The translations under genes were made by a program, and so were the position numbers. Source: Sneathiellales bacterium (GTDB lineage Bacteria > Pseudomonadota > Alphaproteobacteria > JANQFL01). From it: DNA of 64,000 nt. The stretch is from contig JANQFL010000075.1 of the NCBI GenBank assembly GCA_028277845.1, positions 5,553 through 69,552 of the forward strand, read 5' to 3'. Positions 2,429 to 54,497 of the stretch are shown piece by piece; position 1 is the first letter of the stretch, and every line of letters starts with the position of its first letter. The notes under the pieces were generated by a model. The model ran no database searches. It was not told where the DNA came from and saw only the letters and a list, made by a program, of their open reading frames with translations.

Positions 2429-3874
2429 TCAGTCGGAGCCCTGACGATTGTAGACATCGTCGAAGCGGACGATGTCGTCCTCGCCGAGATAGCTGCCCGA
2501 CTGCACCTCGATGATATCGAGCGGCACCTTGCCGGGGTTTTCCAGCCGGTGGGCCGTGCCGATGGGGATGTAAACGGACTCGTTTTCGCTCAACAGTTTG
2601 ATGTCCTCGCCGCAGGTGACCTTGGCGGTGCCCCGCACCACGACCCAGTGTTCCGCCCGGTGGTGATGCATCTGTAACGAAAGAGCGGCGCCCGGTTTGA
2701 CCATCAGGTGCTTGACCTGGTAGCGGTCGCCCGTGTCGATGGATTCGAAGAACCCCCACGGCCGGTAGTCGCGCACATGGGCGTCGTGCTCGGTGCGGCC
2801 GCGGCGCTTGATGTCCTCGACGATGTCCTTGACGTCCTGGGCCCGGTCGCGCGTCGCCACCAGCACGGCGTCGCGGGTCTCCACCACGACCAGGTTTTCC
2901 ACGCCGATGGCGGCGACCATGCCGCTTTCGGCCCGCAGGTAGGAGTTCTTGACGTCGTGGCTCAGCACGTCGCCGGAGAACACGTTGCCGTGGCTGTCCC
3001 GGCCGCCGATATCCCAGAGCGCGTCCCACGACCCGACGTCGTTCCAGCCGATGTCGACGGGAATGACGGCCGCGTGTTCGGTATGCTCCATGACCGCGTA
3101 ATCGATCGACAATGACGGGCTGGCGGCGAACCGGTCTTCGTTCAGCCGCAGGAAGTCGAGGTCCGCTTCCGCCTGTTCGACGGCTTCGGCGCAGCACGCC
3201 GCCATGTCGGGCTGCAAGGCCGCCAGTTCCTCCAGATAGCGGTCGGCGCGAAACACGAACATGCCGCTGTTCCAGGCATAGTCGCCGGACGCCAGATACC
3301 TCTCGGCCGTCGCTTCATCGGGTTTCTCGACGAACTCGGCCACGGCGTAGCTGCCGTCGTGGCCGGCGATGGCGTCGCCGTGGCGGATATAACCGTAACC
3401 GGTGTGCGGTTCCGTCGGCGTAATGCCGAACGCCACGAGATAGCCGTCCCGGGCCAGGTTTCCGGCCGCTTCCACCGCGGTCAGAAAGCGGCCGGCGTGG
3501 CGGATGGCGTGATCGGCGGGCAGGACCGCCATGATGGCGTCGGGGTCGTCGCGCAGCAGCATGTGGGCCGCGGCTGCGACGGCGGGCGCGGTGTTGCGTC
3601 CCACCGGTTCCAGGACTATGGCGGCCGGCGCCTGGCCGATTTCCCGCATCTGCTCGGCGATGACGAAGCGGTGGTCGTTGTTGCAGACCACGACCGGCGC
3701 GGCCGAGTCCGGCAGGTCGGCCAGCCGCGCGGCGGTTTCCTGGATCATGGTACGGTCCGCCGTCAGGGCCAGTAGCTGTTTGGGATAACTGGCGCGGGAC
3801 AGGGGCCACAGCCGTGTGCCCGTGCCGCCCGACAGGATGACCGGATGAATATGACTGCGCGTCGGTTTCGTCAT
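2429..3874 (-). CDS. manC: Mannose-1-phosphate guanylyltransferase / mannose-6-phosphate isomerase (bifunctional ManC/XanB/AlgA type)
   Basis: N-terminal ILSGGTGTRLWPLSR..YPKQ nucleotidyltransferase motif. C-terminal cupin with RPWG and HHHRAEHWVVV. ATG at 3874 preferred; an in-frame TTG at 3889 is possible. Confidence 0.9.
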   Translation of the reverse strand: MTKPTRSHIHPVILSGGTGTRLWPLSRASYPKQLLALTADRTMIQETAARLADLPDSAAPVVVCNNDHRFVIAEQMREIGQAPAAIVLEPVGRNTAPAVAAAAHMLLRDDPDAIMAVLPADHAIRHAGRFLTAVEAAGNLARDGYLVAFGITPTEPHTGYGYIRHGDAIAGHDGSYAVAEFVEKPDEATAERYLASGDYAWNSGMFVFRADRYLEELAALQPDMAACCAEAVEQAEADLDFLRLNEDRFAASPSLSIDYAVMEHTEHAAVIPVDIGWNDVGSWDALWDIGGRDSHGNVFSGDVLSHDVKNSYLRAESGMVAAIGVENLVVVETRDAVLVATRDRAQDVKDIVEDIKRRGRTEHDAHVRDYRPWGFFESIDTGDRYQVKHLMVKPGAALSLQMHHHRAEHWVVVRGTAKVTCGEDIKLLSENESVYIPIGTAHRLENPGKVPLDIIEVQSGSYLGEDDIVRFDDVYNRQGSD

Positions 3875-3957
3875 AGGGCTCGCAACCAATGAAAGTATGG
3901 GCCGAAGAGGGGGCTTGTGATCTTCAAGTACCCTGTCTCCCGGGTTCCTGCAATTGC

Positions 3958-3971
3958 TTGATTTCGATCAT
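3958..3971. promoter_or_regulatory. Candidate FNR/FixK-type box (TTGAT-N4-ATCAT)
   Basis: TTGATttcgATCAT differs at one position from the TTGAT-N4-ATCAA consensus. It lies ~110 nt upstream of the USP start in the manC/USP divergent spacer. Confidence 0.35.
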
Positions 3972-4080
3972 TGAATGAATTTGCTCAGTAAACACATAGT
4001 GTATCGAAAAGGTTTACCGAATATGTCTCCATTCCCGTTTTTGGGGCGTATTGTCAGTCTTTCCTAATGGGGTTCGGACC

Positions 4081-4905
4081 ATGGCGATTAAAAACATCCT
4101 CCTTCATCTCACCCGTGATCCGCGCAACGACGCGCGCATCAACGTCGCGATCAATATGGCCAAGGCGCACACTGCCCACATCACGGCGCTGTATGTCATC
4201 GCGCCGCCGGAAGTCCCGGCGTTCGTCATGGCTTACATCCCGGCCGATGTTCTGGAAAAGCAGCAGGCCGACGCCGAAGCCGAAGCCAAGAAGGTGGAAG
4301 AGGCCTTCACCGCGCTGTGCGACCGCGAAGGCGTGGCCAGCGAATGGCGTCTGGTCAACGGCGATTCCCGTTCGGTCACGGCCTTCCACGCCCACTATGC
4401 CGACCTGGTGATCGTCGGCCAGACGGCGCCGGCGGAGGAACGGGCCAACGGCACCGAAGACCTGGCCGACGAATTGATCCTCTCGAGCGGCCGTCCGGTC
4501 CTGGTCGTGCCCTATGCCGGCAAGTTCGACGTCATCGGCAGGACGGCCCTGGTGGCCTGGAACGGCACCCGCGAATCGGCCCGCTGCCTGCACGATGCCC
4601 TGCCGATCCTGGAGCAGGCGGACAAGGTCATCGTCTACGCCGTCAACGAATCCAGCGCCGACCACATCCCCGGCGCCGATATCTCGACCCATCTGGCCCG
4701 CCACGGCGTGACCGCGGAAGCCCACCACACGGTGGCCCGCGACATTTCCGTCGGCGACGCCCTGCTGGCGGCGGTGTCCGATTACGGCGCCGACCTGCTG
4801 GTCATGGGGGCCTACGGGCACTCCCGCGTGCGCGAATTGGCACTGGGTGGCGCCACCCGGGACATCCTCAACACGATGACGGTTCCCGCCATCATGTCCC
4901 ACTGA
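4081..4905 (+). CDS. Universal stress protein, tandem UspA domains
   Basis: Starts MAIKNILLHL. Two Usp repeats; the second ends in the ATP-binding-type motif GAYGHSRVRELALGGATRDIL. Confidence 0.85.
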   Translation: MAIKNILLHLTRDPRNDARINVAINMAKAHTAHITALYVIAPPEVPAFVMAYIPADVLEKQQADAEAEAKKVEEAFTALCDREGVASEWRLVNGDSRSVTAFHAHYADLVIVGQTAPAEERANGTEDLADELILSSGRPVLVVPYAGKFDVIGRTALVAWNGTRESARCLHDALPILEQADKVIVYAVNESSADHIPGADISTHLARHGVTAEAHHTVARDISVGDALLAAVSDYGADLLVMGAYGHSRVRELALGGATRDILNTMTVPAIMSH

Positions 4906-6283: not shown

Positions 6284-7158
6284 GCACCGCCGTCTTCGGC
6301 GAGCCCCCGCGCCGTCGCGACAAACGCCTTCACGGCGCGTGTTTCCGCGCGCTCCTTGAGGCACACGACATATTCCTTGGTCTCCACTTTGGCGCCGCGG
6401 ATGTCCAGCGCCACCAGGCGGGGGTCGTGGCCCAGTTCCGGTTCGGCGACGACGCTGAAGCCAAGGCCCGCGGCCACGGCTTCGCGCACCGCCTCGCGGC
6501 TGCCGATGTCGAGCACGAAATCGGGTGTGACGCCGGCCTTGTCGAGGGCGGCCTCGAACAGTTTGCGGGTCGCCGAACCGCTTTCCCGGCGGATCATCGG
6601 CTGGCCTTCCATGTCCTGAACCCGGATCGTCTTTCGTTTGGCCCAGGGATGATCGCGGTTGACGAAGGCCACCACCCGGTGGCGGCCGAACGGCAGGGAC
6701 AGGAACCGTTCGTCACCGTCGTCCTCGGCCAGCACCGCCACGTCGGTGCGGTAGTCCAGAAGGCTGCGCCGGACCACGGCGCTGTTGCCGAGCGACACCG
6801 TCAGTTTCAGGCCGGGATAGTCGTTGCGGAACGCGGCGATGACGCCAATGACGTGATAAGGCCCGTCGGCGCCCACTCTGAGCCGCCCGCGCCGCATGCC
6901 GCCGACCGACGACAACAGGTCGTCGGTTTCTTCCTCCAAACGGAACATGCGCAGGGTTTGGGAATATAGGGCGGTGCCCGTGTCGGTCAGTTCCACGCGC
7001 CGGCCGCGGCGGTGGAACAGGTCGATGCCGTAGGTTTCCTCCAGCGCCTTGACCTGAAGAGTGACGGCCGGCTGGGTCAGGTTGAGCCGGTTGGCGGCGG
7101 CCGTGAAGCCGCCCTCGCTGGCCACCGCATGGAAGGCCCGGAGTTGTGCGTGATTCAT
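6280..7158 (-). CDS. LysR-family transcriptional regulator, divergent from phnW
   Basis: N-terminal HTH MNHAQLRAFHAVASEGGFTAAANRLNLTQPAVTLQVKALE plus a C-terminal substrate-binding domain. ATG 7158 preferred over the ORF-track start 7176. Confidence 0.85.
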   Translation of the reverse strand: MNHAQLRAFHAVASEGGFTAAANRLNLTQPAVTLQVKALEETYGIDLFHRRGRRVELTDTGTALYSQTLRMFRLEEETDDLLSSVGGMRRGRLRVGADGPYHVIGVIAAFRNDYPGLKLTVSLGNSAVVRRSLLDYRTDVAVLAEDDGDERFLSLPFGRHRVVAFVNRDHPWAKRKTIRVQDMEGQPMIRRESGSATRKLFEAALDKAGVTPDFVLDIGSREAVREAVAAGLGFSVVAEPELGHDPRLVALDIRGAKVETKEYVVCLKERAETRAVKAFVATARGLAEDGGA

Positions 7159-7184
7159 AAATCTGACATATCGCAAAGATAAGA

Positions 7185-7208
7185 ATTAGTAATTTGATTT
7201 ATACTAAT
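7185..7208. promoter_or_regulatory. Candidate LysR operator: perfect 7-bp inverted repeat ATTAGTA-N10-TACTAAT
   Basis: Read directly in the AT-rich LysR/phnW divergent spacer. It has T-N11-A-like architecture. Confidence 0.45.
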
Positions 7209-7302
7209 ACCCGTGGCCAAATCACGCAACGTCTTGCGGCCACAGGTACATTGAATTGGCACATTGAAATGGCGCAAGGAAAACCAGTCGAGGCGAGGCC
7301 GC

Positions 7303-8442
7303 ATGACCACCAACGAAACGGGAAACACCAACTACCTGCTGACGCCCGGTCCTCTGACCACGTCCCTGTCGATCAAGCAGGCGATGCTGCGCGACTGGGG
7401 CTCGCGCGATGCCGATTTCATTGCCTTGACGGCCCGCATCCGCGAACGCCTGCTTGCCGTTGCAAACGCATCCGACAGTCATGTCTGCGTTCCGGTTCAG
7501 GGCAGCGGCACATTTGCCGTCGAGGCCGCCTTGGGCACCGTGGTGCCATGGGACGGCAAGGTTCTGGTGCTGATCAACGGGGCGTACGGCCAGCGCATGG
7601 CACGGATCCTCGGCATCGTCGGCCGCGAGGTCGTGACGATCGAAAATGCCGAGAACGAGGTCAGCGATACGGCCGCGCTGGATGCCATGCTGGCGCGGGA
7701 CACGGCCATCAGCCACGTGGCCGCGGTGCACTGCGAGACCACATCGGGCATCCTCAATCCCATTCAGGAGATCGCCGATATCGTTGCCCGTCACGGCCGC
7801 AGTCTGCTGATCGATTCGATGAGCGCGTTCGGCGCCATCGATGTGGATGCATCCAAGGTCCGTTTCGACGTACTGATGGCGTCGTCCAACAAGTGTTTCG
7901 AGGGCGTGCCCGGGATGGGTTTCGCCCTGATCCGCCGATCGGTATTGGAAGGTTGCGAAGGCAACGCACACAGCCTTTCGCTGGATCTGTATGACCAGTG
8001 GCAGGCGTTGGAAAAGAACGGCCAGTGGCGCTTCACGCCGCCGACCCACGTGCTGGCGGCATTCGACCGGGCCTTGAGCGAACACGCCGACGAGGGCGGC
8101 GTGGCCGGGCGGCATGCGCGATATGCCGGCAATTGCGGAATCCTGGTCGACGGCATGCGGGCCATGGGATTCGAAACGCTGCTGCCGGACGATGTGCAGG
8201 CGCCGATCATCATCACGTTCCACACGCCGTCCGACCCCAAATTCGATTTCCAGGTGTTCTACGATTCGCTCAGTGATCGGGGTTTCGTCATCTACCCCGG
8301 CAAGTTGACCGTGGCCGACAGTTTCCGCATGGGCTGCATCGGCCGGCTGGGCGAGGACCAGATGCACGCCGCCCTGGACGCGGTCCGCGCAACGTTGTCC
8401 GAAATGGGGGTGACTCAATGCGGCCGCGCGCGGGCCGCGTGA
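7303..8442 (+). CDS. phnW: 2-aminoethylphosphonate--pyruvate transaminase
   Basis: Starts MTTNETGNTNYLLTPGPLTTS. Class-V aminotransferase fold with the PLP-lysine region SSNKCFEGVPG. Length ~379 aa, with an adjacent LysR as in known phnW loci. Confidence 0.8.
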   Translation: MTTNETGNTNYLLTPGPLTTSLSIKQAMLRDWGSRDADFIALTARIRERLLAVANASDSHVCVPVQGSGTFAVEAALGTVVPWDGKVLVLINGAYGQRMARILGIVGREVVTIENAENEVSDTAALDAMLARDTAISHVAAVHCETTSGILNPIQEIADIVARHGRSLLIDSMSAFGAIDVDASKVRFDVLMASSNKCFEGVPGMGFALIRRSVLEGCEGNAHSLSLDLYDQWQALEKNGQWRFTPPTHVLAAFDRALSEHADEGGVAGRHARYAGNCGILVDGMRAMGFETLLPDDVQAPIIITFHTPSDPKFDFQVFYDSLSDRGFVIYPGKLTVADSFRMGCIGRLGEDQMHAALDAVRATLSEMGVTQCGRARAA

Positions 8443-8758
8443 CCCGGACGGCAGGTTCGCCGTCGAGATTTGATTTGCCGGAAAGGAGTTGTGGAACAAT
8501 TCGAAACATGGGCTTCGACGCCACGCATGTGGTTCATTTGAGTGATCCATACGAGTGTGGTGGTCCTCTGCAGGACGGCAGCCGTCAGGAACACGAGACG
8601 AACGAAAAAACCCTGATGATTCATGCCGCTACGTCGGAACTGGACCCTGCCAGGTCGCAATCCGATTCTTGCAGTCACCTAATAAATGTTACAGATTGGT
8701 GACAATACGAAGTCAAAAACTGTGGGCATTTCCGGCACCGGTCATCCTTTTGCCGTGG

Positions 8759-10528
8759 ATGATCGGGTTTCCGGTTGAGACGAGGGAGACGGCAATCACA
8801 GGTACCGGCATTTTGATCTACGTCGTGGGGGGCGTTGCACTGCTGTTGTGGGGAACCCGCATGGTGCGCACCGGAGTCATGCGCGCCTACGGTGGCGACC
8901 TGCGCCGCATCATCGGTTCGGGGACCCGCAACCGGTTTACCGCCTTCCTTTCGGGCATGCTGGTGACATCGCTGTTGCAAAGTTCCACGGCGACCGCGCT
9001 GTTGACCACGAGTTTTGCCGGCCGCGAGCTTTTGGCGGTTGCGCCCGCCCTGGCCATCATGTTGGGCGCCGATGTGGGCACCACGCTGGTGGCTCAGGTG
9101 TTCTCCCTCAATATCGGGTGGTTGTCGCCGCTGCTGATTCTAATCGGTGTCGTCGCGTTCATGTCGGGCGGCCCGACGCGGCGGCGTGACCTCGGTCGGG
9201 TCGCCATCGGTCTCGGGTTGATGCTGGTGGCCCTGAAACAAATCGTTCACGCCAGTACGCCCCTGCGGGAAGCCGAGGCCATGCAGTCGGTGGTCGCTGC
9301 TCTGGCCGGCGAGCCGCTGCTGGCCGTGCTGATCGGCGCACTGCTCACTTGGCTCGCCCATTCCAGCCTGGCCATGGTGTTGCTGATCGTCTCGCTGGCG
9401 GTTGGCGGCGTGGTGCCATTGACGCTGGCGTTCGCGTTGGTTCTGGGCGCCAATCTCGGCGGTGCCGTTCCGGCCGTCATCTCCACTCTCGGTCAGCCAT
9501 CCACGGCCCGTCGGGTGCCGCTCGGCAATCTGATGTTCCGGTTCATCGGCGTGGCTGCGCTATTGCCGTTCATCGATCTGGTGGCGCCCTATCTGGCGCA
9601 ACTGGAAACCGCTCCGGCCCGCCAGGTGGTCAACTTCCACACCGGGTTCAATATCGCGTTGGCCGTGGTGTTCATCGGTCTGGTCGGTGCCGCCGCCAAG
9701 CTGGCGGCGCGTGTGCTGCCCGAAACCGAGAACGGCGAGAGCCCCGACCGGCCGCGCTACCTCGATCCCGATATCGTCGACAAGCCGTCCTTGGCCCTGG
9801 CCGCCGCGTCGCGTGAGACTTTGCGTATGGGGGACGTGGTCGAGACCATGCTGGCCCGCAGCCTGGATGTGTTCCGCACCGACGATCGCAAGCTCATGGC
9901 CGAGGTCGAGGAAATGGACGATGTGGTCGATGCGTTGCACGAAGCGGTCAAGCTCTATGTCACCGACGTCAGCCGCACCCCGCTGAACGAAGAGGAAAGC
10001 CGGCGCTGCGTCGACATCATCACCTTTACCACGAACCTGGAGCACATCGGCGACATCATCGACAAGAATTTGATGGAACTGGCCAACAAGAAGTACCGCA
10101 AAAAGCTCCAGTTCTCGCCCCAGGGACTGGTGGAAATCACGGAACTGCACCAGCGGGTCACCGACAACCTGCGCATGAGCCTCAGTGTCTTCATGTCGGG
10201 CGACGTGGATTTGGCGCGCAATCTGCTGGCGGAAAAGATCGAAGTGCGCGACATGGAACGGGAGGCGGCCGAGAATCACCTCGAGCGGCTGCGCGACGGC
10301 CTGCGTGAAAGTATCGAATCGTCCGCCTTGCATCTGGACGTCTTGCGCGACCTCAAGCGTATCCACTCGCACATTACGTCGGTGGCCTATCCCATACTCG
10401 ATGCGGCCGGGGAATTGCGTTCCAGCCGTCTGAAAAAACGCAAAAAAGTCAGGGAGGACAACTCAGAGCAGCCGCGGCAACAGAGCATGGCGCCGCACCC
10501 TAGTCAAACCGCAACAAAACTGTCTTAA
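8759..10528 (+). CDS. Na+/phosphate cotransporter family protein with C-terminal PhoU-like repeats
   Basis: A polytopic N-terminal half (two Na_Pi_cotrans-like repeats) and a charged helical C-terminal half with repeated PhoU-like segments. ATG 8759 chosen because the upstream ORF extension is non-membrane junk. Confidence 0.8.
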   Translation: MIGFPVETRETAITGTGILIYVVGGVALLLWGTRMVRTGVMRAYGGDLRRIIGSGTRNRFTAFLSGMLVTSLLQSSTATALLTTSFAGRELLAVAPALAIMLGADVGTTLVAQVFSLNIGWLSPLLILIGVVAFMSGGPTRRRDLGRVAIGLGLMLVALKQIVHASTPLREAEAMQSVVAALAGEPLLAVLIGALLTWLAHSSLAMVLLIVSLAVGGVVPLTLAFALVLGANLGGAVPAVISTLGQPSTARRVPLGNLMFRFIGVAALLPFIDLVAPYLAQLETAPARQVVNFHTGFNIALAVVFIGLVGAAAKLAARVLPETENGESPDRPRYLDPDIVDKPSLALAAASRETLRMGDVVETMLARSLDVFRTDDRKLMAEVEEMDDVVDALHEAVKLYVTDVSRTPLNEEESRRCVDIITFTTNLEHIGDIIDKNLMELANKKYRKKLQFSPQGLVEITELHQRVTDNLRMSLSVFMSGDVDLARNLLAEKIEVRDMEREAAENHLERLRDGLRESIESSALHLDVLRDLKRIHSHITSVAYPILDAAGELRSSRLKKRKKVREDNSEQPRQQSMAPHPSQTATKLS

Positions 10529-24108: not shown

Positions 24109-24168
24109 CTAGACGAGCATCAAACTCAGCTCCGGCACCAGCACGATCAGCACCGGCAGCATGATCGC
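24109..24168 (-). pseudogene. Orphan duplicate of the last ~20 codons of dctM (displaced 3' terminus; att-like left repeat)
   Basis: The minus strand reads ..AIMLPVLIVLVPELSLMLV-TAG, versus the intact dctM end VIMLLVLILIVLVPELSLMLV-TGA at 27601-27666. The nucleotide match has 2 substitutions and one 6-nt indel over ~50 nt. Confidence 0.8.
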
Positions 24169-24502
24169 GGTGTTACTCTGAAGTAGAGGGCACGTTTGTT
24201 CCTTATTTTCGGTCGCGGAATTGCGTTCTGAATATTTGAGTGGCCGCTCTTTCCTTCACAAGCGATTCGTATCAGCTGTCGTTGCGGAAGCACTTGTCGT
24301 TCTAGTGCGCGCGACAGATCAGGTCGGTTACTAACACTAGACCGCAAATACATCGGTGTAATCGCTGGCGTTGTCGCCTTGATGAGTCTGCGAGGCGGGA
24401 CTTAGAGGTGTATGAAGAGTTGAAACTCTCCTCATATTAGAATTGACGATATGAAGTCACTGAAAGGTAGCAATGAATAACTATTTCAGTAAAATATAAC
24501 TG

Positions 24503-24970
24503 TTGTTTGAAAAAACGAAACTGGTGGTCGAATTGCAAATCTTATTAGATATTGGATACTCTGTCGGTTTCGTTGCGGCCTTATTGACTATTTTTAATTT
24601 CTTTCTTCCTATTAACACTGCTAAAGCTCGAGTTTGGCATGCAGCATACATAGTTGTGGTTTGCGTCGTAATTAGTTATTCGACATTTCTGTCAAGCAAA
24701 CAGTCTCGGCTAAACAGTATTGCTATCGCTGCTGATACATTGCTTGCTGAAAGAGATATGGAATATACACACAGAGGTTTTGTATTGGCCGTATTTTCCT
24801 TTTTAGAAAAAAACAAAGATCTCTTTCCTGACAACTATGATCGTGCAGTACAGCTCTGCAATGAGTTTAAGTGCAATAGTCCGCAGATGAGATCAAATGA
24901 TATTGTAACCCTTTCCTCTAGTTTAGCTGGTCTTGTAAGAGGAATAGGAACGCTTAGCAAAACTCAATAA
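24503..24970 (+). CDS. Hypothetical 2-TM membrane protein (islet gene 1)
   Basis: Only long ORF in this stretch. Two hydrophobic helices (ILLDIGYSVGFVAALLTIFNFFL; AAYIVVVCVVISYSTFL) then a soluble tail. No ATG near the 5' end (TTG 24503 or GTG 24524), so the start is uncertain. Confidence 0.45.
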   Translation: MFEKTKLVVELQILLDIGYSVGFVAALLTIFNFFLPINTAKARVWHAAYIVVVCVVISYSTFLSSKQSRLNSIAIAADTLLAERDMEYTHRGFVLAVFSFLEKNKDLFPDNYDRAVQLCNEFKCNSPQMRSNDIVTLSSSLAGLVRGIGTLSKTQ

Positions 24971-25081
24971 AGTGCCTAATTGGAGACTACAAACCTTAAT
25001 TTGGAACTATTGCTGCTGGTGAAGCAGCAATTTTTAATACTAATTCCCGCGAAAGTTTATAGAATCGTTTCCCCTTAAACT

Positions 25082-25909
25082 ATGAACAAAGTTGGGAACA
25101 TGCAGTCTAATAAAACTTGCTTTGTGATTGCCCCAATTGGTGAGCCGGAATCTGAAACCAGAAGGCGTTCTGACCAGGTACTAAAACATGTTATATCGCC
25201 AGCTGTAGAAGAGTGCGGGTATATTGCAGTTAGGGCTGATCAGATTTCTGAGCCCGGAATTATTACTAGTCAAGTTATTCAGCGAATTGTAGATGACCAG
25301 TTAGTTGTGGCGGATTTGACAGAAAGAAATCCGAATGTTTTCTACGAACTAGCCATCCGTCATGCTATTCGGAAACCATTAGTGCAGCTAATCAAAAAAG
25401 GTGAGCAAATTCCGTTCGATGTCGCTGGAACTCGCACCATTTATGTCGATCATCATGATCTTGATAGTGTTGAAGATGCAAAAAAGGAAATTATTTCACA
25501 AGTTCGCGCGCTTGAAAGCGATTCCTCCAATCTTGATACACCCATCTCGGTATCATTAGATCTTCAGCTTTTGAGACAAAGTGAAAACCCAGAACAAAGA
25601 TCGTTGGCCGATTTGCTGTCCGTAATTTCTGAGTTGCGCACTAGTGTAATAAGTATTGAAAAACGTTTGGATCATCCAGAAACAATTCTACCTATCCACA
25701 TCCTGGAAGATCTTATTGAGCGTAGTGAAAGACAATCTGTATGGTCACGAAAGCTGAGCAACGAGATTCGTTTGAGACTCCGCGAACTACTAACAGACAT
25801 GCAACATGACAAACCTAGAGGGGCAGAGGACCGACATAAGCACGAAGTTCGTCTAAAAGAACTTGAAAGAGTTTCTGAAATAATTACGCGTTCAATTTCA
25901 GATTATTAG
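25082..25909 (+). CDS. Nucleoside 2-deoxyribosyltransferase-like / TIR-like Rossmannoid N-domain fused to a coiled-coil C-domain (islet gene 2)
   Basis: CFVIAPIGEP..YIAVRAD..LVVADLTERNPNVFYELAIRHAIRKPLVQLI..IPFDVAGTRTIYV strand-helix pattern. The C-terminal 140 aa are charged and heptad-like. An alternative ATG is at 25100. Confidence 0.65.
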   Translation: MNKVGNMQSNKTCFVIAPIGEPESETRRRSDQVLKHVISPAVEECGYIAVRADQISEPGIITSQVIQRIVDDQLVVADLTERNPNVFYELAIRHAIRKPLVQLIKKGEQIPFDVAGTRTIYVDHHDLDSVEDAKKEIISQVRALESDSSNLDTPISVSLDLQLLRQSENPEQRSLADLLSVISELRTSVISIEKRLDHPETILPIHILEDLIERSERQSVWSRKLSNEIRLRLRELLTDMQHDKPRGAEDRHKHEVRLKELERVSEIITRSISDY

Positions 25910-26271
25910 AAAAGTTAAATATGATTGGATACTGCGAATTGTGCATAAAACATTTGTCGTGTCACAAATTTACTTTTTAGGTAAGAAATTGCTTTCGAAA
26001 GATCCGCTATTTTTAGCGTTACATCAGCGCAACTGTGTTTTCAAAATAGTGGGGTAACGGGTCAAGTCTCGCGTTGTAGCATCTTATAACGCCATTACGT
26101 TCAAGGCTCCCGTTGTCGTCGAATACGACGAACCGCGTCGGGTGACGACTATCACATTGCATGATCCTGGATGCTACAGTTCGAGACCTGACTACTTTTA
26201 CGTATGACCCCTCTTGCGTTCCTTGTGTTCTTGTATTCCTAAAATCAGTGTAAGAACCAAGGTAAAAAAAG

Positions 26272-27132
26272 ATGGCTGTCCCGAAATCAAAAAGTACGAC
26301 AAGTAAGGCGAAACTGGTGTTTGGTGCTGGAGCAGCGACCAGTTTCATTACCTGTATCTTTCTGCTAATCGCGGACAAAACTGCGAGCGCTACAGTCGCC
26401 GCGACATTGACCATAGTGTTATTGCTATTTCTTTACTTCCCTGTCATTGAGAGTTTCGAGTTTTTTGGTTTGAAAGCAAAGCTAAGGCACAGCGTTTTGG
26501 AAATTGAAAACGTGTTGGCCAAGGTCAGGAAGACTGCCGAAGTTTCAGCCAAGCTACTTTACATACAACTCGCTTGGATGAACCGCATGGGTTCAATCAC
26601 CTGGGAGAAGAAACGCGAACTCTTGTCTGATATCGACAGTTTGCTGGACAGTGTCGAAATCAACAAAAATGAGATCGACAATTTGAAGCAACCGTTTCTG
26701 ATTATGATAGCGAGGGACCTTCTTGGCACATGGCAGCATGCCATTAGATTTCGGGTCAACCACAACCACAATCTAGTAATGGATGAGTTGAACAGCCGGT
26801 TTGGGAACGGACCCACTAATCCAACGGATCCAGTGTACTTGGATCTTTCTAATAGGCGGCGCACGTGGAGCTACAAGTCATTTGAAAGCGATGACATACT
26901 TTCAGATACACGCTTTCTAGAATTCGATCAGTTCACAAAAGACCTTATCGCCCCATACCCTTTCTCGAGTCAGGAACTATCAGTTTTTGAAAAAACACGT
27001 ATGGAACTTGTCGCTCTCGAAAGAGACTGCAGGAACAGCGGTACGATCACTAAGGAGGCTGGTGAGTTTCTCGAGAAATACAGTCACCCCCAAGACAAGT
27101 TATACAGAGAGATTTTCGACGGTTTCGACTAG
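26272..27132 (+). CDS. Hypothetical membrane-anchored protein (islet gene 3)
   Basis: Lys-rich N-terminus, two TM helices (FGAGAATSFITCIFLLIA; VAATLTIVLLLFLYFPVI), then a ~210 aa helical soluble domain. No family recognised. Confidence 0.6.
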   Translation: MAVPKSKSTTSKAKLVFGAGAATSFITCIFLLIADKTASATVAATLTIVLLLFLYFPVIESFEFFGLKAKLRHSVLEIENVLAKVRKTAEVSAKLLYIQLAWMNRMGSITWEKKRELLSDIDSLLDSVEINKNEIDNLKQPFLIMIARDLLGTWQHAIRFRVNHNHNLVMDELNSRFGNGPTNPTDPVYLDLSNRRRTWSYKSFESDDILSDTRFLEFDQFTKDLIAPYPFSSQELSVFEKTRMELVALERDCRNSGTITKEAGEFLEKYSHPQDKLYREIFDGFD

Positions 27133-27158
27133 CGGAGTATTTTCTTGCTCGCGTATGT

Positions 27159-27482
27159 TTGGCGCAGCAAATGGGACAAAAACTGGAGAGTAGGTTGGCA
27201 ATTTGGAAATTAACGCCGATCGATGTTGGTCAAAGAAATTGGGGGGCGAGCACGTACAAAGAACAAGTAGTTGTCCGAGCCGCTGACGAACGAGATGCAA
27301 GATTAAGGGCCCAAAGGGCATTTCAAATCGCTACTTATATTGTACCTGGTACGGAAATCGCGCTCTGCCCTTGGCAGTATCCGGATATGGTTCGTGCAGA
27401 GCGATTAGACGAAGGTCAATATGAAGAAGAAGGGCCAAATCAAATTCTCGAGCCTGATTGGGCTGAAAGTGAGATTAAATAG
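27159..27482 (+). CDS. Small hypothetical protein with acidic C-terminus (islet gene 4)
   Basis: ORF 27 nt after gene 3. The likely true start is TTG 27195, preceded by GGAG (ctGGAGagtaggTTG). Ends ..EGQYEEEGPNQILEPDWAESEIK. Confidence 0.45.
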   Translation: MAQQMGQKLESRLAIWKLTPIDVGQRNWGASTYKEQVVVRAADERDARLRAQRAFQIATYIVPGTEIALCPWQYPDMVRAERLDEGQYEEEGPNQILEPDWAESEIK

Positions 27483-27600
27483 TCTGACGCTTTCTAATGG
27501 GCACAACAATTTTTCCGTTGGCCTTTGTGGTCAACAATTGCTTGCCATTTAACGGCGTCGTGAATTGAAAGTGACGGATTGGGCCGCGCATCCCATTCAC

Positions 27601-28926
27601 TCACACCAGCATCAAACTCAACTCCGGCACCAGCACGATCAGGATCAGCACCAGCAGCATGATCACCGCGAACGGGAAGGCGCCGCGGAAGATTTCACCG
27701 AGACTGATTCTGTCGTCGTCCAACGTCGATTTGATCACGTAAACGGCGATACCTAGAGGCGGTGTCAGCAGGCCGATCTCGACGGCGATGATGGTGACGA
27801 TGCCGAACCATACCAGGTCGGCGTTGAAGCCGCCGACGATGGGCAGGATCAGCGGCAGCACGATGAGCAGGATCGAGGTCGAGTCCAGCACCGTGCCCAT
27901 CAAGAGAATCACGATGATGTAGATGGTCAGCAGGGCGGCGAAGCTCAGCTCCGCCGCCTCGATGCCGCCGATGAGGAACTGCGGCAGGCCCGACAGCGCC
28001 AGCATGCGGGTGTAGATGCTGGCGGCGATGATCAGGAACGAAATCGAGACGGTGACGTGGCCGGTCTCCACCAGCACCGACCACAGGCCGCGCCAGGTCA
28101 GCTTGCGCCGGGCCAGGGCCAGCAGCAGCGCCCCCAACGCGCCGACGGCGCCGGCTTCCGTCGGCGTGAAGAAGCCGCCGTAGATGCCGCCCAGCACCAC
28201 GGCGATGAGCAGCACGATGGGCGCCATCTTGGCGGCCATGACCGGCAGGGTCAGGTCGTCGTCTTCCTGATCGCTGCCGGAACCGGATATTGCGTCCGGC
28301 CCGCCGACGAAACCCGGCACCCGGTGGGCCAGGAACACGATGGCCAGGCCGAACGCGGCGGCCAGCAGCAGGCCGGGAATGACGCCGGCGATGAACAGCG
28401 CGCCGACCGAGACCTCGGCCAGGAAGCCGTAGACGATCAACAGCAAACTCGGCGGGATCAGCATGCCCAGCACCGACGACCCGGCCACCACGCCGACCGA
28501 GAAGCGCGGCGTGTAACCCAGCCGGAGCATTTCCGGCACCGCCACCTTGGTGAACACGGCGGCGGAGGCGATGGAGATGCCGGTGATGGCGGCGAACACC
28601 GCGTTGGCCGCCACCGTGGCGATGCCCAGCCCGCCCTTGATGCGGCGGAACAGGTGGTTGGCCACCTGGAAGGTATCGCGGCCGATGTCGGCCTGGCTCA
28701 CCAGCAGCCCCATCAGCACGAACAGCGGCACCACGCCGAAGATATGGCTGGCGATGGAATCGGCGGCGGCCTGGGCCAGCAGCTTGCTGGCGACGATGAC
28801 CTTGCCCTTGATCGCCCAGACGCCGAGGAACGAAAGCAGCGTCAGCGCCACGCCCACATGCATGCCGAGCCAGATCAGCACCAGCATGGCGGCGAGCGAC
28901 GCCAGCCCGATCTCCAGCCCGGTCAT
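27601..28926 (-). CDS. dctM: TRAP transporter large permease subunit
   Basis: 441-aa polytopic protein with typical DctM organisation. Followed on the same strand by dctQ and dctP. Confidence 0.9.
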   Translation of the reverse strand: MTGLEIGLASLAAMLVLIWLGMHVGVALTLLSFLGVWAIKGKVIVASKLLAQAAADSIASHIFGVVPLFVLMGLLVSQADIGRDTFQVANHLFRRIKGGLGIATVAANAVFAAITGISIASAAVFTKVAVPEMLRLGYTPRFSVGVVAGSSVLGMLIPPSLLLIVYGFLAEVSVGALFIAGVIPGLLLAAAFGLAIVFLAHRVPGFVGGPDAISGSGSDQEDDDLTLPVMAAKMAPIVLLIAVVLGGIYGGFFTPTEAGAVGALGALLLALARRKLTWRGLWSVLVETGHVTVSISFLIIAASIYTRMLALSGLPQFLIGGIEAAELSFAALLTIYIIVILLMGTVLDSTSILLIVLPLILPIVGGFNADLVWFGIVTIIAVEIGLLTPPLGIAVYVIKSTLDDDRISLGEIFRGAFPFAVIMLLVLILIVLVPELSLMLV

Positions 28927-45703: not shown

Positions 45704-45862
45704 GTACCCGGGGAAGCAGCGGACGGCCGGTGCATCACACACGGACCGGCAGCTGCCACTTTTTCGCGCATGCCGGTTGCCGTCCGGCGTGAAAATGTTA
45801 TCTCTTCCTGCGGGACGAAGGGTCTTTCGTTCCCTCAGTCCGAACAGTCATGGGAACAGAGC

Positions 45863-46003
45863 ATGCGTCGCCTTCCGGCCAATGCGATAGGCGTCTTGTG
45901 GGTTGCGTTGGGCACGGCTCTATTTTCCGTGCTGTTTGCATCGGGCAAATTGTCGGGCGGCGCGGCGGCGGAAGAAGCGAGTGACGACCCGAGTGGAGGA
46001 TGA
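45863..46003 (+). pseudogene. Possible truncated N-terminus of a DMT/EamA-type transporter
   Basis: MRRLPANAIGVLWVALGTALFSVLFASGKLSGG looks like EamA TM1. It then runs into unrelated acidic residues and a stop exactly where composition turns AT-rich. Confidence 0.3.
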
Positions 46004-46085
46004 AAATCTATAACCTTAAATACAGGGGGCGAAACAAACATTTTTCTAATCTAGAGAGCCTCAATAAACGTACAGGGAATTGTAT

Positions 46086-46583
46086 CTAACTTAAAACTAT
46101 GAACTGAAATAAGACGATATAGACAACAGAACCTGAAGCCACCAGTGCAGAAATTTGCTTAGTCCAATAAAAGATCCGTCTTAGTTTGTAGCTAAACCAG
46201 CTTTTTTTATAATGCAGTTTTCCGTCTTCCCGGCTCAGCGCTTTTTCAACTGCAAAAGCGCCACATAGATACTGCAAATAATCTGAGAATATTGCTGTTG
46301 CCCCAGTTAGCCCTGTCAAATAGAGGGCAATACCATGATTAGTTACAATATCTTGAGCGAAAGGTTTGTCAGAAGTTAGTACTGTGTAAAAGATTGCCAA
46401 TACACCGAAGCCTATAAATCTACAGGTTTCCCCAATGCGGCCAGTTACATAGTTTTTCTCTCCGAGACGTATTTGTCTCAGAGCTTCTAGCTTGGCTGAT
46501 TCGTCTCTGGACTCGTCAACTTCCATGCTATCAACGTTGTCCTTTAGCTCGCCCGGCGTCGGGTGCTCTACGTCGTCCGACAA
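46086..46583 (-). CDS. Hypothetical 3-TM membrane protein with acidic N-terminus
   Basis: TTG start preceded by GGAGG at good spacing. 18 nt downstream of the HU-like gene. Helices FIGFGVLAIFYTVL, GIALYLTGLTGATAIF, ISALVASGSVVYIVLFQFIVL. Confidence 0.6.
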   Translation of the reverse strand: MSDDVEHPTPGELKDNVDSMEVDESRDESAKLEALRQIRLGEKNYVTGRIGETCRFIGFGVLAIFYTVLTSDKPFAQDIVTNHGIALYLTGLTGATAIFSDYLQYLCGAFAVEKALSREDGKLHYKKSWFSYKLRRIFYWTKQISALVASGSVVYIVLFQFIVLS

Positions 46584-46601
46584 TTATATACCTCCAAATG
46601 G

Positions 46602-46928
46602 TTAACGTCTTATCCCTGGTCCAGGATCGTCTGTATCATCATCGTCGCCATTTCCACCCTGAACGGCATATTTTAGTACTTTTCCAGCCTTGAATTTTGG
46701 TTGTTTTCCGCCCGGTATGTGGACTATTTGGCCAGTCCGAGGATTTCGACCTTCTTTCGCTACTCTCTGTGTGACAGAAAATGTGCCAAAACCAACCAAC
46801 CGAACTTCTAATCCTTCGCTAAGGGAGTTTCCAATCGTATTGAATATTGTATCGACAGCGGTACGTGCATCGTTCAAAGATAATCCAGCTGTAACTGCCA
46901 CTAATTTGATTAGCTCATTTTTATTCAT
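46602..46928 (-). CDS. HU/IHF-family DNA-binding protein with Asp-rich C-terminal extension
   Basis: MNKNELIKLVA..RLVGFGTFSVTQRVAKEGRNPRTGQIVHIPGGKQPKFKAGKVLK is a canonical HU core, followed by GGNGDDDDTDDPGPGIRR. ATG 46928 has AAGG upstream; an in-frame GTG at 46946 is possible. Confidence 0.8.
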   Translation of the reverse strand: MNKNELIKLVAVTAGLSLNDARTAVDTIFNTIGNSLSEGLEVRLVGFGTFSVTQRVAKEGRNPRTGQIVHIPGGKQPKFKAGKVLKYAVQGGNGDDDDTDDPGPGIRR

Positions 46929-47263
46929 TTGTTGCGCCTTATTCACGTAAAAGTAATCTACGGCTGCCAGAAAATGTACTAATAGTATTATATATGAACC
47001 TGCCGATTGCTACCAATAGCGTTCCTATTTATAAAATTTTGACGTTAGTCGGTGTGATATTGCCAACAAATATAACCTGCTGGCCCCAAATGGCGGTCGA
47101 AGCGGTTGGTAGCGTATTAACAGGAATACCTGAATTCCACTCAGTCCTACCCGAACTTGATCCGTTTATCCACGTTGTCGATGGCAGAGATGACCGTGAT
47201 CGGTCGGAAGTGCAGTACCTCGTGGATCACCGCATCAAGTCCGGTGATGATGAGTTTGGAAAA

Positions 47264-48256
47264 CTAGCGGGAGAGCCGGCTCCCCAGCCAATTCAGCGGC
47301 GTCGCCAGCAGGCCTTGCGGTAGCAGAACCACAGACACCATGAACACGAGGGCGAGGGCGAAGATCCAGTAGTCGCCGAGGAGTTGGCCGAACAGGCTTT
47401 CGATCAGTCGGACGCCGATCGCCGCGAGGAAGGCGGCGAGGACCATTTCCTTGCCGCCCAGCGCCACCCAGATCAGCACTTCGGCCGACAATGCGAAGCC
47501 GATCAGGGTGGGGGAGGCGAATTCGTCGGTGGCGACGAACAGCGCGCCGGAGAGGCCGGCGACGGCGGCGCCGATGGTGAAGGCGCCGAGCCGCACCCAC
47601 AGCACCCGGTAGCCGAAGAAAGCGGCCCGTTCCGGGTTGGTCTTGACCGCCGTCAGCACCACGCCGAAGGGCGAGGCGACGAGGCGTTCGAGGAAGATGT
47701 AGACCAGGAGGCCGACGACGAGCAGCGTGTAGAAGCGCGGAACCGGTTCCCACAACTCGACGCCGCCGAACACGCCTGTGTTGAGGGGCGGCACGCCGGA
47801 CAGGCCGTTGGCGCCGCCGAGACCGTACCAGCTGTTGATGAGCTGTTCGAGGATGTAGGCGATGGCGATCGTGACGATAGCCAAGTACGGCCCGGACAGG
47901 CCCTTGCCCCAAAAGAGGAAGTAGCCGAGAAAGGCGGCGAACAGACCGGCGCCGATGACGGCGATGAGCAGGCCGAGATAGCTCGACATCAGCCAGTCGC
48001 CCAGCATGCCCATGGTGACGGCGGACATGAGGTAACCGCCGAGGCCGAAGAACATGGCCTGGCCCAGACACAGAATGCCGCCGCGGCCCCACACCAGGCT
48101 GAGCGACATAGCGAACACGCCGTAGAGGATGTAGCGGGCGAACTGGTCGGTCCAGTAGTCGCCGGCCAGGGGCACCAGGGCGAGGGCGGCGAACACGGCG
48201 GCGCCGAGCCACACCGGCAGGCGGCCGCTTCTGGCCGTCGTGCTTGATGCGCTCAC
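47264..48256 (-). CDS. HAAT ABC permease (LivM/UrtC-like)
   Basis: GTG 48256 overlaps the upstream stop (GTGA). GGILCLGQAMFFGLGGY motif, hydrophobic. The longer ORF-track N-terminus is in a different gene's territory. Confidence 0.85.
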   Translation of the reverse strand: MSASSTTARSGRLPVWLGAAVFAALALVPLAGDYWTDQFARYILYGVFAMSLSLVWGRGGILCLGQAMFFGLGGYLMSAVTMGMLGDWLMSSYLGLLIAVIGAGLFAAFLGYFLFWGKGLSGPYLAIVTIAIAYILEQLINSWYGLGGANGLSGVPPLNTGVFGGVELWEPVPRFYTLLVVGLLVYIFLERLVASPFGVVLTAVKTNPERAAFFGYRVLWVRLGAFTIGAAVAGLSGALFVATDEFASPTLIGFALSAEVLIWVALGGKEMVLAAFLAAIGVRLIESLFGQLLGDYWIFALALVFMVSVVLLPQGLLATPLNWLGSRLSR

Positions 48257-53666: not shown

Positions 53667-54053
53667 CTAGCTGCAATCGCCGTAGGCGACGTGATCGCCG
53701 TCGTTCTTGTTGCCGTGGTCCCAGTCGGCCTCGTTTTCCTCGCCGAGTTTGTAGGTGAACGTCACCGGCGTGCCTTCCTGGTCGTAGGTCTGAAGGCCGG
53801 CTTGGGCACTGCCCTGGGCACTGTTGTGCGAACTCTTGGGGCAGGTCATGCCCATCTCCCATACGCCGTTGCCGTCTTCCTGTTCGAACGTGCAGAAAAG
53901 GCGATCGGAGGACTCTGACGTATAAGTGCCTTTCTCGCCATCCGGAATGGTCGTCGTGCTGTTCAAGTTATCGAACGAGGCGCAGCGCGTGTCCGTGCAC
54001 TTCACCGTTTGCCCGGTTGAATTCTCGACAATGAGTGTGACTCTCGTGGACAT
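53667..54053 (-). CDS. Aegerolysin-like small beta-sandwich protein (paralog 1, 128 aa)
   Basis: ATG 54053 is preceded by GGAGAGGGAG. VTLIVENSTGQTVKC.. and ..GMTCPKSSHNS resemble the aegerolysin/Cry34/RahU patterns (xIxNxTGxxI; DCPWGSxxN). Paralogous to the adjacent gene. Confidence 0.6.
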   Translation of the reverse strand: MSTRVTLIVENSTGQTVKCTDTRCASFDNLNSTTTIPDGEKGTYTSESSDRLFCTFEQEDGNGVWEMGMTCPKSSHNSAQGSAQAGLQTYDQEGTPVTFTYKLGEENEADWDHGNKNDGDHVAYGDCS

Positions 54054-54104
54054 GGAACGCTCCCTCTCCGCAATTGCGTGTGCTGAAATTCGGCTGGTCA
54101 AACC

Positions 54105-54497
54105 TTACGAGCAGTCGCCGTAGGAGATTGTGTCTCCATTGTTTTGATTGCCGTGGTTCCAGTCGGCCTGATTCGGTGTGCCGGGGATATATTCGAACTC
54201 GACCGGCGTTCCACTGCGATCGTAGTGCTGAAGCCCGGCATTGGTGCTGCCGTAGGCGCTGTTGGACGAACTCTTGGGACAGGTCATGCCCATCTCCCAG
54301 GCACCGTACGCCCCTTCCTCTACCCAGGTGCAAAAGATGCGGTCGCTGGACGTTGCCGTGAAGGTCTTGGACTCTCCGTCCGCGATCGTGGTCACCCCGC
54401 CTTCCATGCCCGAAATCGATTCGCATTTCGTGTTCGTGCATTTGATGGTGTTGCCTGTTTGGTTGTTTATCGTCAGCTTCACTCTGACATTCGACAT
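54105..54497 (-). CDS. Aegerolysin-like small beta-sandwich protein (paralog 2, 130 aa)
   Basis: ATG 54497 is preceded by GGAGA. VKLTINNQTGNTIKC.., SKTFTATSSDRIFC, GMTCPKSSSNS. The ORF-track extension to 54833 was rejected. Confidence 0.6.
   Translation of the reverse strand: MSNVRVKLTINNQTGNTIKCTNTKCESISGMEGGVTTIADGESKTFTATSSDRIFCTWVEEGAYGAWEMGMTCPKSSSNSAYGSTNAGLQHYDRSGTPVEFEYIPGTPNQADWNHGNQNNGDTISYGDCS

Follow-up and report, generated by a model that had tools for sequence, protein, structure and literature searches.

Type VIII Thoeris is a bacterial defense system whose effector, ThsI, a 'CMP hydrolase and TPR' protein, is activated by canonical cyclic ADP-ribose (cADPR) made by a TIR protein, and the TPR domain of ThsI has been proposed to be the cADPR sensor (Yirmiya et al., bioRxiv 10.64898/2025.12.03.692087). 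A metagenomic type VIII Thoeris system from Pseudomonas was validated experimentally (Tables S1 and S2 of that work), and rare hybrid operons encode both ThsH and ThsI, two effectors that can share one TIR (bioRxiv 10.64898/2025.12.03.692087). Enzymes of related fold can also act alone, as in Swarozyc, a single-gene system consisting of a DUF4062 TIR-like NADase that is activated by a phage protein and leads to abortive infection (Osinski et al., bioRxiv 10.64898/2026.05.01.722283). Here we analyze a low-GC islet of four genes, gene 1 to gene 4, in a 64-kb stretch of contig JANQFL010000075.1 from a Sneathiellales bacterium; this whole stretch is referred to as the window. A preliminary description had presented the four genes as one candidate defense module. 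We now consider the islet to be probably a mosaic of four independently evolving genes that did not co-evolve, of which the one interpretable gene, gene 2, would encode a solo ThsI-like effector. The interest attaches to the gene 2 family and not to the proposed four-gene system: the analysis exposes a very large unannotated family whose catalytic domain is homologous to that of a newly validated Thoeris effector, nearly always without the TIR partner and the TPR sensor.

Relationship of gene 2 to the type VIII Thoeris effector

The gene at the center of this work is the following:
25100–25909, plus strand: gene 2, 269 amino acids (profiles, homologues, AlphaFold2 (AF2) model, Foldseek)

A tblastn search of plasmids with gene 2 returned proteins annotated as 'TRAFs-binding domain-containing protein'. 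On the Pseudomonas plasmid pA7J1 (NZ_MK376342.1, positions 2896–4542), such a protein of 411 amino acids is followed 6 nt on by a gene for a 134-residue TIR protein. Gene 2 is 31% identical to the 411-residue protein over the N-terminal 200 amino acids (pairwise E = 2e-26), with the alignment ending near residue 198, and over 127 residues the pA7J1 TIR and ThsB of the validated type VIII Thoeris are 76% identical. This alignment, together with the ThsB-like nature of the adjacent TIR, indicates homology between the catalytic domain of ThsI and the N-terminal, putatively catalytic domain of gene 2. Gene 2 and the pA7J1 protein share the motifs CFVI..G, RAD.I, VVAD(L/I)..NPN..YEL.IRHA and IPFD, and the 'CMP hydrolase-like' domain of the ThsI type is present in gene 2. 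The pA7J1 genes, a type VIII Thoeris pair, carry only the annotations 'TRAFs-binding' and 'TIR domain-containing', and gene 2-like matches under the 'TRAFs-binding' annotation occur in many plasmids of Rhizobium, Vibrio, Citrobacter and Agrobacterium.

The remaining parts of a type VIII Thoeris system are not found at this locus. Gene 2 has no Pfam TPR match and is shorter than the pA7J1 protein (269 versus 411 amino acids); in place of the TPR domain of ThsI it has a conserved linker and a hypervariable helical tail of about 80 amino acids. A search of the window in all frames with a ThsB-like profile hidden Markov model (HMM) gave nothing at E ≤ 1, and neither Pfam nor PADLOC reported a TIR match in genes 1, 3 and 4.

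Most relatives of gene 2 share this solitary setting. A ThsB-like TIR gene is adjacent in 5 of 80 genomic loci (L008, L019, L038, L052 and L073), so that about 94% of the relatives in these loci stand alone; the TIR-adjacent ones include close relatives of gene 2 with 56–67% identity. ThsI itself sometimes adjoins a ThsB-like TIR and a SLATT gene, as do some relatives of gene 2, and the order TIR-SLATT-gene 2 homologue in loci L008 and L052 resembles the published ThsH+ThsI hybrid operons. Locus L008 (5213–9989, from a metagenome-assembled genome of Methanobacteriaceae) is an archaeal defense-type cluster in which the first gene is followed by the ThsB-like TIR gene (7078–7485), a SLATT-like gene with two transmembrane helices (7495–7947) and two tandem gene 2 homologues. 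We take the first gene of this cluster to be DUF4062-like from its motif. The first of the two gene 2 homologues (8001–8795) is apparently interrupted, with only its C-terminal 148 amino acids forming an open reading frame (ORF).

An alternative raised by these data is that gene 2 is an orphan Thoeris-type effector working in trans, whose linker and helical region would respond to cADPR or a related signal that a ThsB-like TIR, encoded elsewhere in the genome, makes upon infection. The homology to the catalytic domain of ThsI would be as expected in that case, as would the roughly 6% of the family, close relatives included, still found beside ThsB-like TIR genes, and ThsH and ThsI offer a precedent for effectors sharing one TIR. 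However, gene 2 does not have the domain proposed to sense cADPR in ThsI, the window holds no ThsB-like TIR, and a solitary setting in about 94% of the loci would be unusual for a signal-dependent effector. We therefore regard an effector in trans as unlikely; if it were true, the gene 2 family would represent effectors uncoupled from their own operon.

Predicted fold and domain organization of gene 2

The preliminary description had read the product of gene 2 as an NDT/TIR-like Rossmannoid domain fused to a coiled coil, and profile matches, an AF2 model and Foldseek all agree with the NDT/TIR-like domain, with long helices after it. Residues 21–149 match the PADLOC profile PDLC00733 ('Effector', TIR) with E = 7e-11, and the protein also matches PHROG 3634 (E = 1e-51) and PHROG 10872 (E = 1e-33). 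The AF2 model, based on 20 sequences, has a mean predicted local distance difference test (pLDDT) score of 72 and consists of a beta-alpha Rossmann-like core at residues 5–116 followed by long helices. Its best Foldseek matches in the PDB are TIR-STING (9lmq, E = 3.8e-4), the CMP hydrolase MilB (4ohb, E = 5.4e-4), DNPH1 and nucleoside 2-deoxyribosyltransferases (NDTs). As modeled, the domain has the flavodoxin-like three-layer order of the TIR/NDT (DrHyd) N-glycosidase fold and a conserved Glu after strand 3. This putative catalytic Glu, encoded at 25346–25348, is invariant in the 20 sequences, as is the surrounding VVADLTERNPNVFYELAIRHAIRKPLVQ motif, which can be written as ...NPNVFYEL... A comparison of the gene 2 profile with the PDB at the sequence level gave only coiled-coil noise.

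Several enzyme classes with this fold can be compared with gene 2. The TIR effectors of the cyclic-oligonucleotide-based antiphage signaling system (CBASS) and the pyrimidine cyclase system for antiphage resistance (Pycsar), such as the TIR-STING protein Cap12 and PycTIR, account for its best PADLOC and best Foldseek matches (PDLC00733 and 9lmq), and their conserved Glu occupies the same position in an (N)V.(Y/F)EL(G/A) helix, as judged by eye, although the Pfam model for this class misses gene 2. Neither a CD-NTase (cGAS/DncV-like nucleotidyltransferase) nor a pyrimidine cyclase was found by PADLOC and Pfam among the four islet proteins, and no STING, SAVED or cyclic nucleotide monophosphate-binding sensor domain was detected in gene 2. 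The NDT/DrHyd enzymes (MilB/BlsM, DNPH1 and NDTs) share the fold and the Glu that opens the helix after strand 3, with Foldseek E-values of 5e-4 to 1e-2 and a target-normalized template modeling score of about 0.55–0.6, but they are only 13–20% identical to gene 2, have no linker and helical tail, and are mostly metabolic. NDT-type effectors linked to retrons require a reverse transcriptase and multicopy single-stranded DNA, both absent here. Swarozyc would be alike in concept, as a stand-alone TIR/NDT-like enzyme joined to an accessory domain, but belongs to a different family, with no DUF4062 Pfam match in gene 2 at E ≤ 1. Lastly, a serine-recombinase-like catalytic domain, which could have explained mobility of the islet, was considered for gene 2; as its significant matches, in both sequence and fold, are to TIR/NDT enzymes, this idea was abandoned.

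The order of domains in gene 2 is an N-terminal domain of the TIR/NDT class, a conserved linker (TPISVSLDLQLLRQS.NPEQRSLAD) and the hypervariable tail. Among 20 close members from different phyla, the mean pairwise identity is 82% over residues 4–190 and 32% over residues 191–269. This pattern suggests that the enzyme and linker are under constraint, whereas the tail diversifies and may serve recognition or oligomerization.

Distribution and context of the gene 2 family

The gene 2 family is very large and previously undescribed. It comprises at least 6,585 homologous protein clusters from Bacteria and Archaea, and no Pfam model covers it. The best 120 homologues are 60–83% identical to gene 2. 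Bacterial loci come from Chlorobiales, Acidobacteria, Planctomycetes, Verrucomicrobia, Bacteroidetes, Actinobacteria and Chloroflexi, and archaeal loci from methanogens, Halobacteria and Thermoproteota; almost always, the homologue lies below its host genome in GC content.

No partner gene emerges from the surroundings of these homologues: when their neighbors were clustered, even the most recurrent family reached no more than about 6 of 76 loci. Small transmembrane proteins are not enriched beside them either (6 of 131 immediate versus 13 of 360 distal neighbors), and the idea of such proteins as partners that are functional analogues was rejected for this reason. A minority of the neighbors are SLATT and ThsB_TIR proteins, S subunits of type I restriction-modification systems, PDC candidates, a pPIWI-associated nuclease and two integrases. 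Apart from these few defense or mobile-element genes, the sampled neighbors are mostly housekeeping genes.

Proposed role of gene 2

Gene 2 is possibly a single-gene abortive-infection protein. In such a scheme, the TPR sensor of ThsI would have been replaced by the conserved linker and the hypervariable helical tail, and the enzyme would be kept inactive until the tail senses an infection cue or drives oligomerization. Gene 2 alone, as an N-glycosidase, would then deplete NAD+ or a nucleotide pool, and this depletion would lead to abortive infection by a logic analogous to that of Swarozyc. More tentatively, the family at large might be a widespread single-protein immune effector independent of TIR signaling, in which the tail detects phage components directly and triggers depletion; we see this wider claim as possible, with the balance of our judgment against it. 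If solo gene 2 proteins did defend alone, a common single-gene system would be added to the bacterial and archaeal immune repertoire, and their autonomy would show a route by which a signal-dependent effector becomes independent.

A number of observations weigh against reading gene 2 as a solo effector in a mosaic islet. The near neighbors of its homologues (first to third order) are mostly housekeeping genes, such as those for PGK, TIM, IMPDH, RNR, GAPDH, TsaD and HisRS, and the guilt-by-association signal for defense is modest because these are not classic defense islands. The 82% conservation of the N-terminal part across phyla is atypical for fast-evolving defense enzymes. The Pfam models for TIR, NDT and DUF4062 miss gene 2, with no match listed at E ≤ 1, and the alignment of its Glu with the conserved Glu of ThsB-like TIRs comes from a weak hhalign match (E = 0.067). 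Solitary gene 2 could also depend on a TIR gene beyond the 64-kb window. With regard to the islet as a whole, the absence of co-occurrence described below rests, for genes 1 and 3, on few observations because only three distinct contexts for gene 3 and one for gene 1 lie behind it, and no entry of the protein collection is related to the host proteins of this organism at ≥ 90% identity.

Some of these points would fit a gene without any role in defense, that is, a metabolic or salvage N-glycosidase or a decaying passenger in an islet left behind when a larger integrative element eroded and lost its integrase and other genes. The fold is common to the metabolic enzymes DNPH1, MilB and NDT, the catalytic domain is very highly conserved, the neighbors of homologues are mostly housekeeping genes, and the att-like repeats of the islet enclose no recombinase gene. 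Nevertheless, the best sequence links of gene 2 are to immune effectors (the PADLOC TIR profile and ThsI), the family is patchy, lower in GC than its hosts and horizontally spread, it occurs as morons in prophages, and a hypervariable tail would be unexpected for a metabolic enzyme. Taken together, we find the absence of a defense role quite unlikely, and a solo ThsI-like effector is the reading of gene 2 that we prefer.

The islet and its gene models

The preliminary description of four plus-strand ORFs in a low-GC, horizontally acquired islet was borne out by the ORF list, GC content, GC content at third codon positions (GC3) and border repeats. In addition to gene 2, the region contains the following features:

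24109–24165, minus strand: left border repeat, 57 nt, a second and detached copy of the dctM 3' end (repeat search, alignment, sequence reading)
24166–24502, no strand: left non-coding spacer, 46% GC (ORF list, Pfam, GC)
24503–24970, plus strand: gene 1, 155 amino acids, two transmembrane helices, TTG start (ORF list, homologue, hydrophobic helices)
25009–25040, plus strand: terminator-like hairpin between genes 1 and 2 (consensus scan)
25910–26271, no strand: stretch separating gene 2 from gene 3, predicted to be strongly structured (folding versus shuffled sequences, repeat search)
26272–27132, plus strand: gene 3, 286 amino acids (homologues, AF2)
27195–27482, plus strand: gene 4, 95 amino acids, TTG start (homologue alignment, ribosome-binding site)
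27601–27663, minus strand: right border repeat, in frame with dctM and forming its 3' end (repeat search, alignment, Pfam)

The GC content is 38–47% over about 24.2–27.55 kb, compared to ~66% in the flanks, and GC3 is 0.32, 0.32, 0.54 and 0.37 for genes 1 to 4, compared to 0.93 in the flanking host genes. Given this contrast with the host in both measures, the DNA of the islet is therefore foreign, and its composition is non-uniform. On one side lies dctM of a TRAP transporter, intact at 27601–28926 on the minus strand (Pfam DctM, E = 1e-81), and DctM, DctQ and DctP next to the islet were all confirmed by Pfam; the flank on the other side is a gene without a Pfam match. The left repeat, which on the minus strand reads ..AIMLPVLIVLVPELSLMLV* with its own stop codon included, lies 9 nt past the stop of the convergent upstream gene. 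The two copies of the dctM end are ~89% identical in the alignment, plus a 6-nt indel, and the positions of these direct repeats match exactly both the GC transitions and the stop of dctM. Since copies of the dctM end lie at both GC borders, the islet spans 24166–27600 (3.4 kb), and it is a horizontally acquired element whose insertion site falls within the final ~20 codons of dctM.

Direct repeats that derive from the target gene and flank the insertion are a mark of integrase-mediated genomic islands, and the islet resembles small 3'-end islands in its foreign composition, the preserved frame of the target and the target-derived repeats. It differs from small integrative islands in that no integrase, excisionase or transposase is found inside the 3.4 kb or beside it: the ORF list and Pfam gave no recombinase gene in the islet, just the four ORFs and small unmatched ORFs. 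No recognizable integrase remnant is present in the left spacer (24166–24502), a 68-residue minus-strand ORF at 24147–24353 has no Pfam match, the window contains no tRNA gene, and the islet DNA has no match in plasmids or phages. Repeat-flanked islets as a property of the gene 2 family were rejected; eight loci of gene 2 homologues had flanking repeats, but controls at shifted positions gave them at the same rate (4 of 47 versus 6 of 55). The repeat of the window itself stands because its position agrees with the borders in GC content and with the stop of dctM.

As for the gene models, the start of gene 2 is most likely the ATG at 25100, judging from sequence comparison. This form is the one held in the protein collection, and gene 2 homologues begin 4–5 residues before the conserved CFVIAPIG; an alternative ATG at 25082 would give 275 amino acids. 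Gene 1 has an alternative TTG at 24533, preceded by GGTGG. For gene 4, the earlier length of ~95–107 amino acids can be narrowed to 95, and the 107-residue form (27159–27482) set aside, because most listed homologues align from their own residue 1–2 to residue 13–14 of the 107-residue ORF and GGAG at 27184–27187 is a plausible ribosome-binding site for the TTG at 27195. A search of the protein collection returned the window's own proteins for genes 2 and 3 but not those for genes 1 and 4; apparently, the original gene caller missed these two genes, both of which start with TTG and have real homologues.

The hairpin after gene 1 consists of a 9-bp stem, ATTGCTGCT/AGCAGCAAT, followed by the T-run TTTTTAAT, as found in a consensus-only scan that gave no more such sites across the region than expected from shuffled sequence. 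Genes 2 and 3 are separated by 362 nt and genes 3 and 4 by 62 nt. At least three transcription units, gene 1, gene 2 and genes 3-4, are thus probable; genes 3 and 4 are probably co-transcribed here, without gene 4 being a conserved partner of gene 3. The spacer at 25905–26275 folds far better than shuffled sequences (z = -4.5 on the plus strand and -2.5 on the minus strand) and contains an inverted repeat with 23-nt arms at 26061–26083 and 26170–26192. Rfam gave no match on the islet, this spacer included, and the spacer sequence is not conserved upstream of gene 3 homologues. A 47-residue minus-strand ORF (26019–26162) without a Pfam match overlaps it.

Co-occurrence of the four genes

In the preliminary description, the four genes formed one module of a sensor/effector, a membrane disruptor and an antidote. 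We searched for co-occurrence of their families by tblastn and profile HMMs over all six-frame ORFs of 248 loci, made up of 80 genomic and 80 viral loci for gene 2, one for gene 1, seven in three distinct contexts for gene 3, and 80 for gene 4, the latter metagenomic and from one subclade of gene 4. There was not a single case of any two of the families occurring together in the 248 loci, and the claim of one module fails on this result. Toxin-antitoxin adjacency of genes 3 and 4 was not found either, with a gene 4-like ORF in none of the 7 gene 3 loci and a gene 3-like ORF in none of the 80 gene 4 loci. Early cross-hits of the gene 4 HMM in gene 2 loci were due to helix-turn-helix (HTH) columns, and an HMM restricted to the gene 4 core gave none.

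Other parts of the same description fared differently. None of the four proteins has a significant Pfam or NCBIfam match, in agreement with the view that they belong to no housekeeping family. The term 'orphan' suits gene 1 (one homologue) and gene 3 (four), both near-orphans, but not gene 2 with its 6,585 clusters or gene 4 with 370. Similarly, the defense flavor is retained for gene 2, given its ThsI homology and the PADLOC TIR effector profile, but not for a four-gene system.

Genes 1 and 3 each encode two hydrophobic helices, as claimed, and for gene 3 these are also seen in an AF2 model (pLDDT 74), which predicts an N-terminal hairpin of two transmembrane helices and an all-helical bundle as cytoplasmic domain, with no significant fold match in the PDB or BFVD. 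The single homologue of gene 1 is 48% identical, marking it as a real gene, and has an IS66 element on one side and a convergent SLATT_4 gene on the other. Gene 3 has only four homologues among 5.8 billion proteins. One is flanked by a D12 methyltransferase gene and an AIPR gene, with a retron-type reverse transcriptase and a Mu-like prophage protease nearby; another is found at the edge of a prophage capsid/terminase block, and a third beside a DUF6710 gene. From these contexts, genes 1 and 3 appear to be rare proteins with two transmembrane helices that travel with mobile or defense-type DNA. A weak match of gene 1 to Pfam 8xMP (E = 0.5) was not used as evidence. A divergent SLATT identity, as in the SLATT effectors with two transmembrane helices of type VII Thoeris, was rejected for both (no Pfam SLATT match; hhalign E = 0.59 for gene 3 and 0.37 for gene 1), as was a relationship between the two, for which hhalign was negative, and a SLATT HMM found nothing over the window. 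At the protein level, genes 1, 3 and 4 have no match in plasmids, and gene 3 has none in phages.

The gene 4 family numbers 370 representative clusters with a cutoff of E ≤ 1e-3, of which 84 remain at E ≤ 1e-10; its members are mostly 90–100 amino acids long, with the consensus MPIWKLxPxD..W.AST..G.VIVRA..E..AR..A..AF.IA...PG...PW and no matching Pfam or NCBIfam model. The domain stands alone, follows an Xre-type (Xre/HipB-like) HTH, or precedes other sequence in longer proteins; relatives with variable architecture are P0127, P0130, P0135, P0146, P0221, P0269, P0183, P0227 and P0235. Reading the extensions by eye, we take them to be a KAP-type P-loop domain in P0269 (1344 amino acids), an MBL-fold-like domain in P0235 and BON-like repeats in P0183 and P0227. 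When members of the alphaproteobacterial-type subclade were placed on contigs, their neighbors were unrelated to genes 1–3. The gene 4 domain thus seems to be a mobile module of a widespread uncharacterized family, often fused to an Xre-type HTH or to other domains, and the contexts of genes 1, 3 and 4 fit accessory or mobile DNA.

An alternative is a system specific to this lineage, in which the gene 2 enzyme signals to or cooperates with genes 1 and 3 as membrane effectors and the acidic gene 4 product is an antidote or regulator. All four genes do lie on one strand in one islet, genes 3 and 4 are merely 62 nt apart, pairs of a TIR and a transmembrane effector are a validated theme (for instance in Thoeris types II and VII), and the gene 4 domain is fused to an antitoxin-like Xre HTH in some relatives. 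Against this stand the lack of any family pair in the 248 loci, the lack of enriched small transmembrane neighbors, the absence of SLATT-like features in genes 1 and 3, the terminator-like hairpin after gene 1, the 362-nt gap, the heterogeneous GC3 and the fact that gene 2 relatives in operons hold the position of the effector (ThsI) and not of the signal generator. We judge such a system very unlikely; the four-gene 'system' is not supported and should not be pursued as one.

Gene 2 homologues in prophages

Prophages of Streptococcus and Staphylococcus contain distant gene 2 homologues (31–41% identity) as morons in reverse orientation within the lysogeny or replication module. Iyer et al. 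2022 (PMC9503650) noted that small Firmicute phages carry a distinct version of TIR, which may be the same group. The temperate Streptococcus phage Javan37 (L249, 4004–4699) and Staphylococcus phage SA13 (L250, 3998–4648) each have a single gene 2-like gene opposing the early/replication genes, and one of the two adjoins the repressor/Cro switch, a moron-like placement. That gene 2-type proteins are counter-defense or competition tools of mobile elements, for example enzymes hydrolyzing TIR-derived signals, with a mobile-element-derived copy in the islet, is highly improbable: the enzyme class does act on ribosyl-nucleotide bonds and homologues are found in these prophages and in PHROG families, but the copies in prophages have the orientation of morons expressed in lysogeny, which is where prophage-encoded defense is usually placed, close relatives take the place of the effector downstream of ThsB and SLATT, and we know of no anti-Thoeris protein with the gene 2 fold.

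Other regions of the window

A second low-GC islet (about 40–50% GC) lies at 45850–47300 of the window, with no flanking direct repeat found. It encodes, on the minus strand, an HU-type DNA-binding protein with an acidic tail (46602–46946; Pfam Bac_DNA_binding, E = 6e-28) and a 165-residue protein with multiple transmembrane helices (46086–46583) that has no Pfam match and no similarity to genes 1–4. Further along, at 53667–54470 on the minus strand, two tandem paralogues encode Cys-containing proteins of ~128 amino acids in DNA of reduced GC content, one copy of which (53670–54053) has no Pfam match; their common pattern is ...TCPKSS.NSA.GS..AGLQ.YD..GTPV.F.Y......ADW.HGN.N.GD...YGDCS. Another stretch of 39% GC is located at 54.8–55.1 kb.

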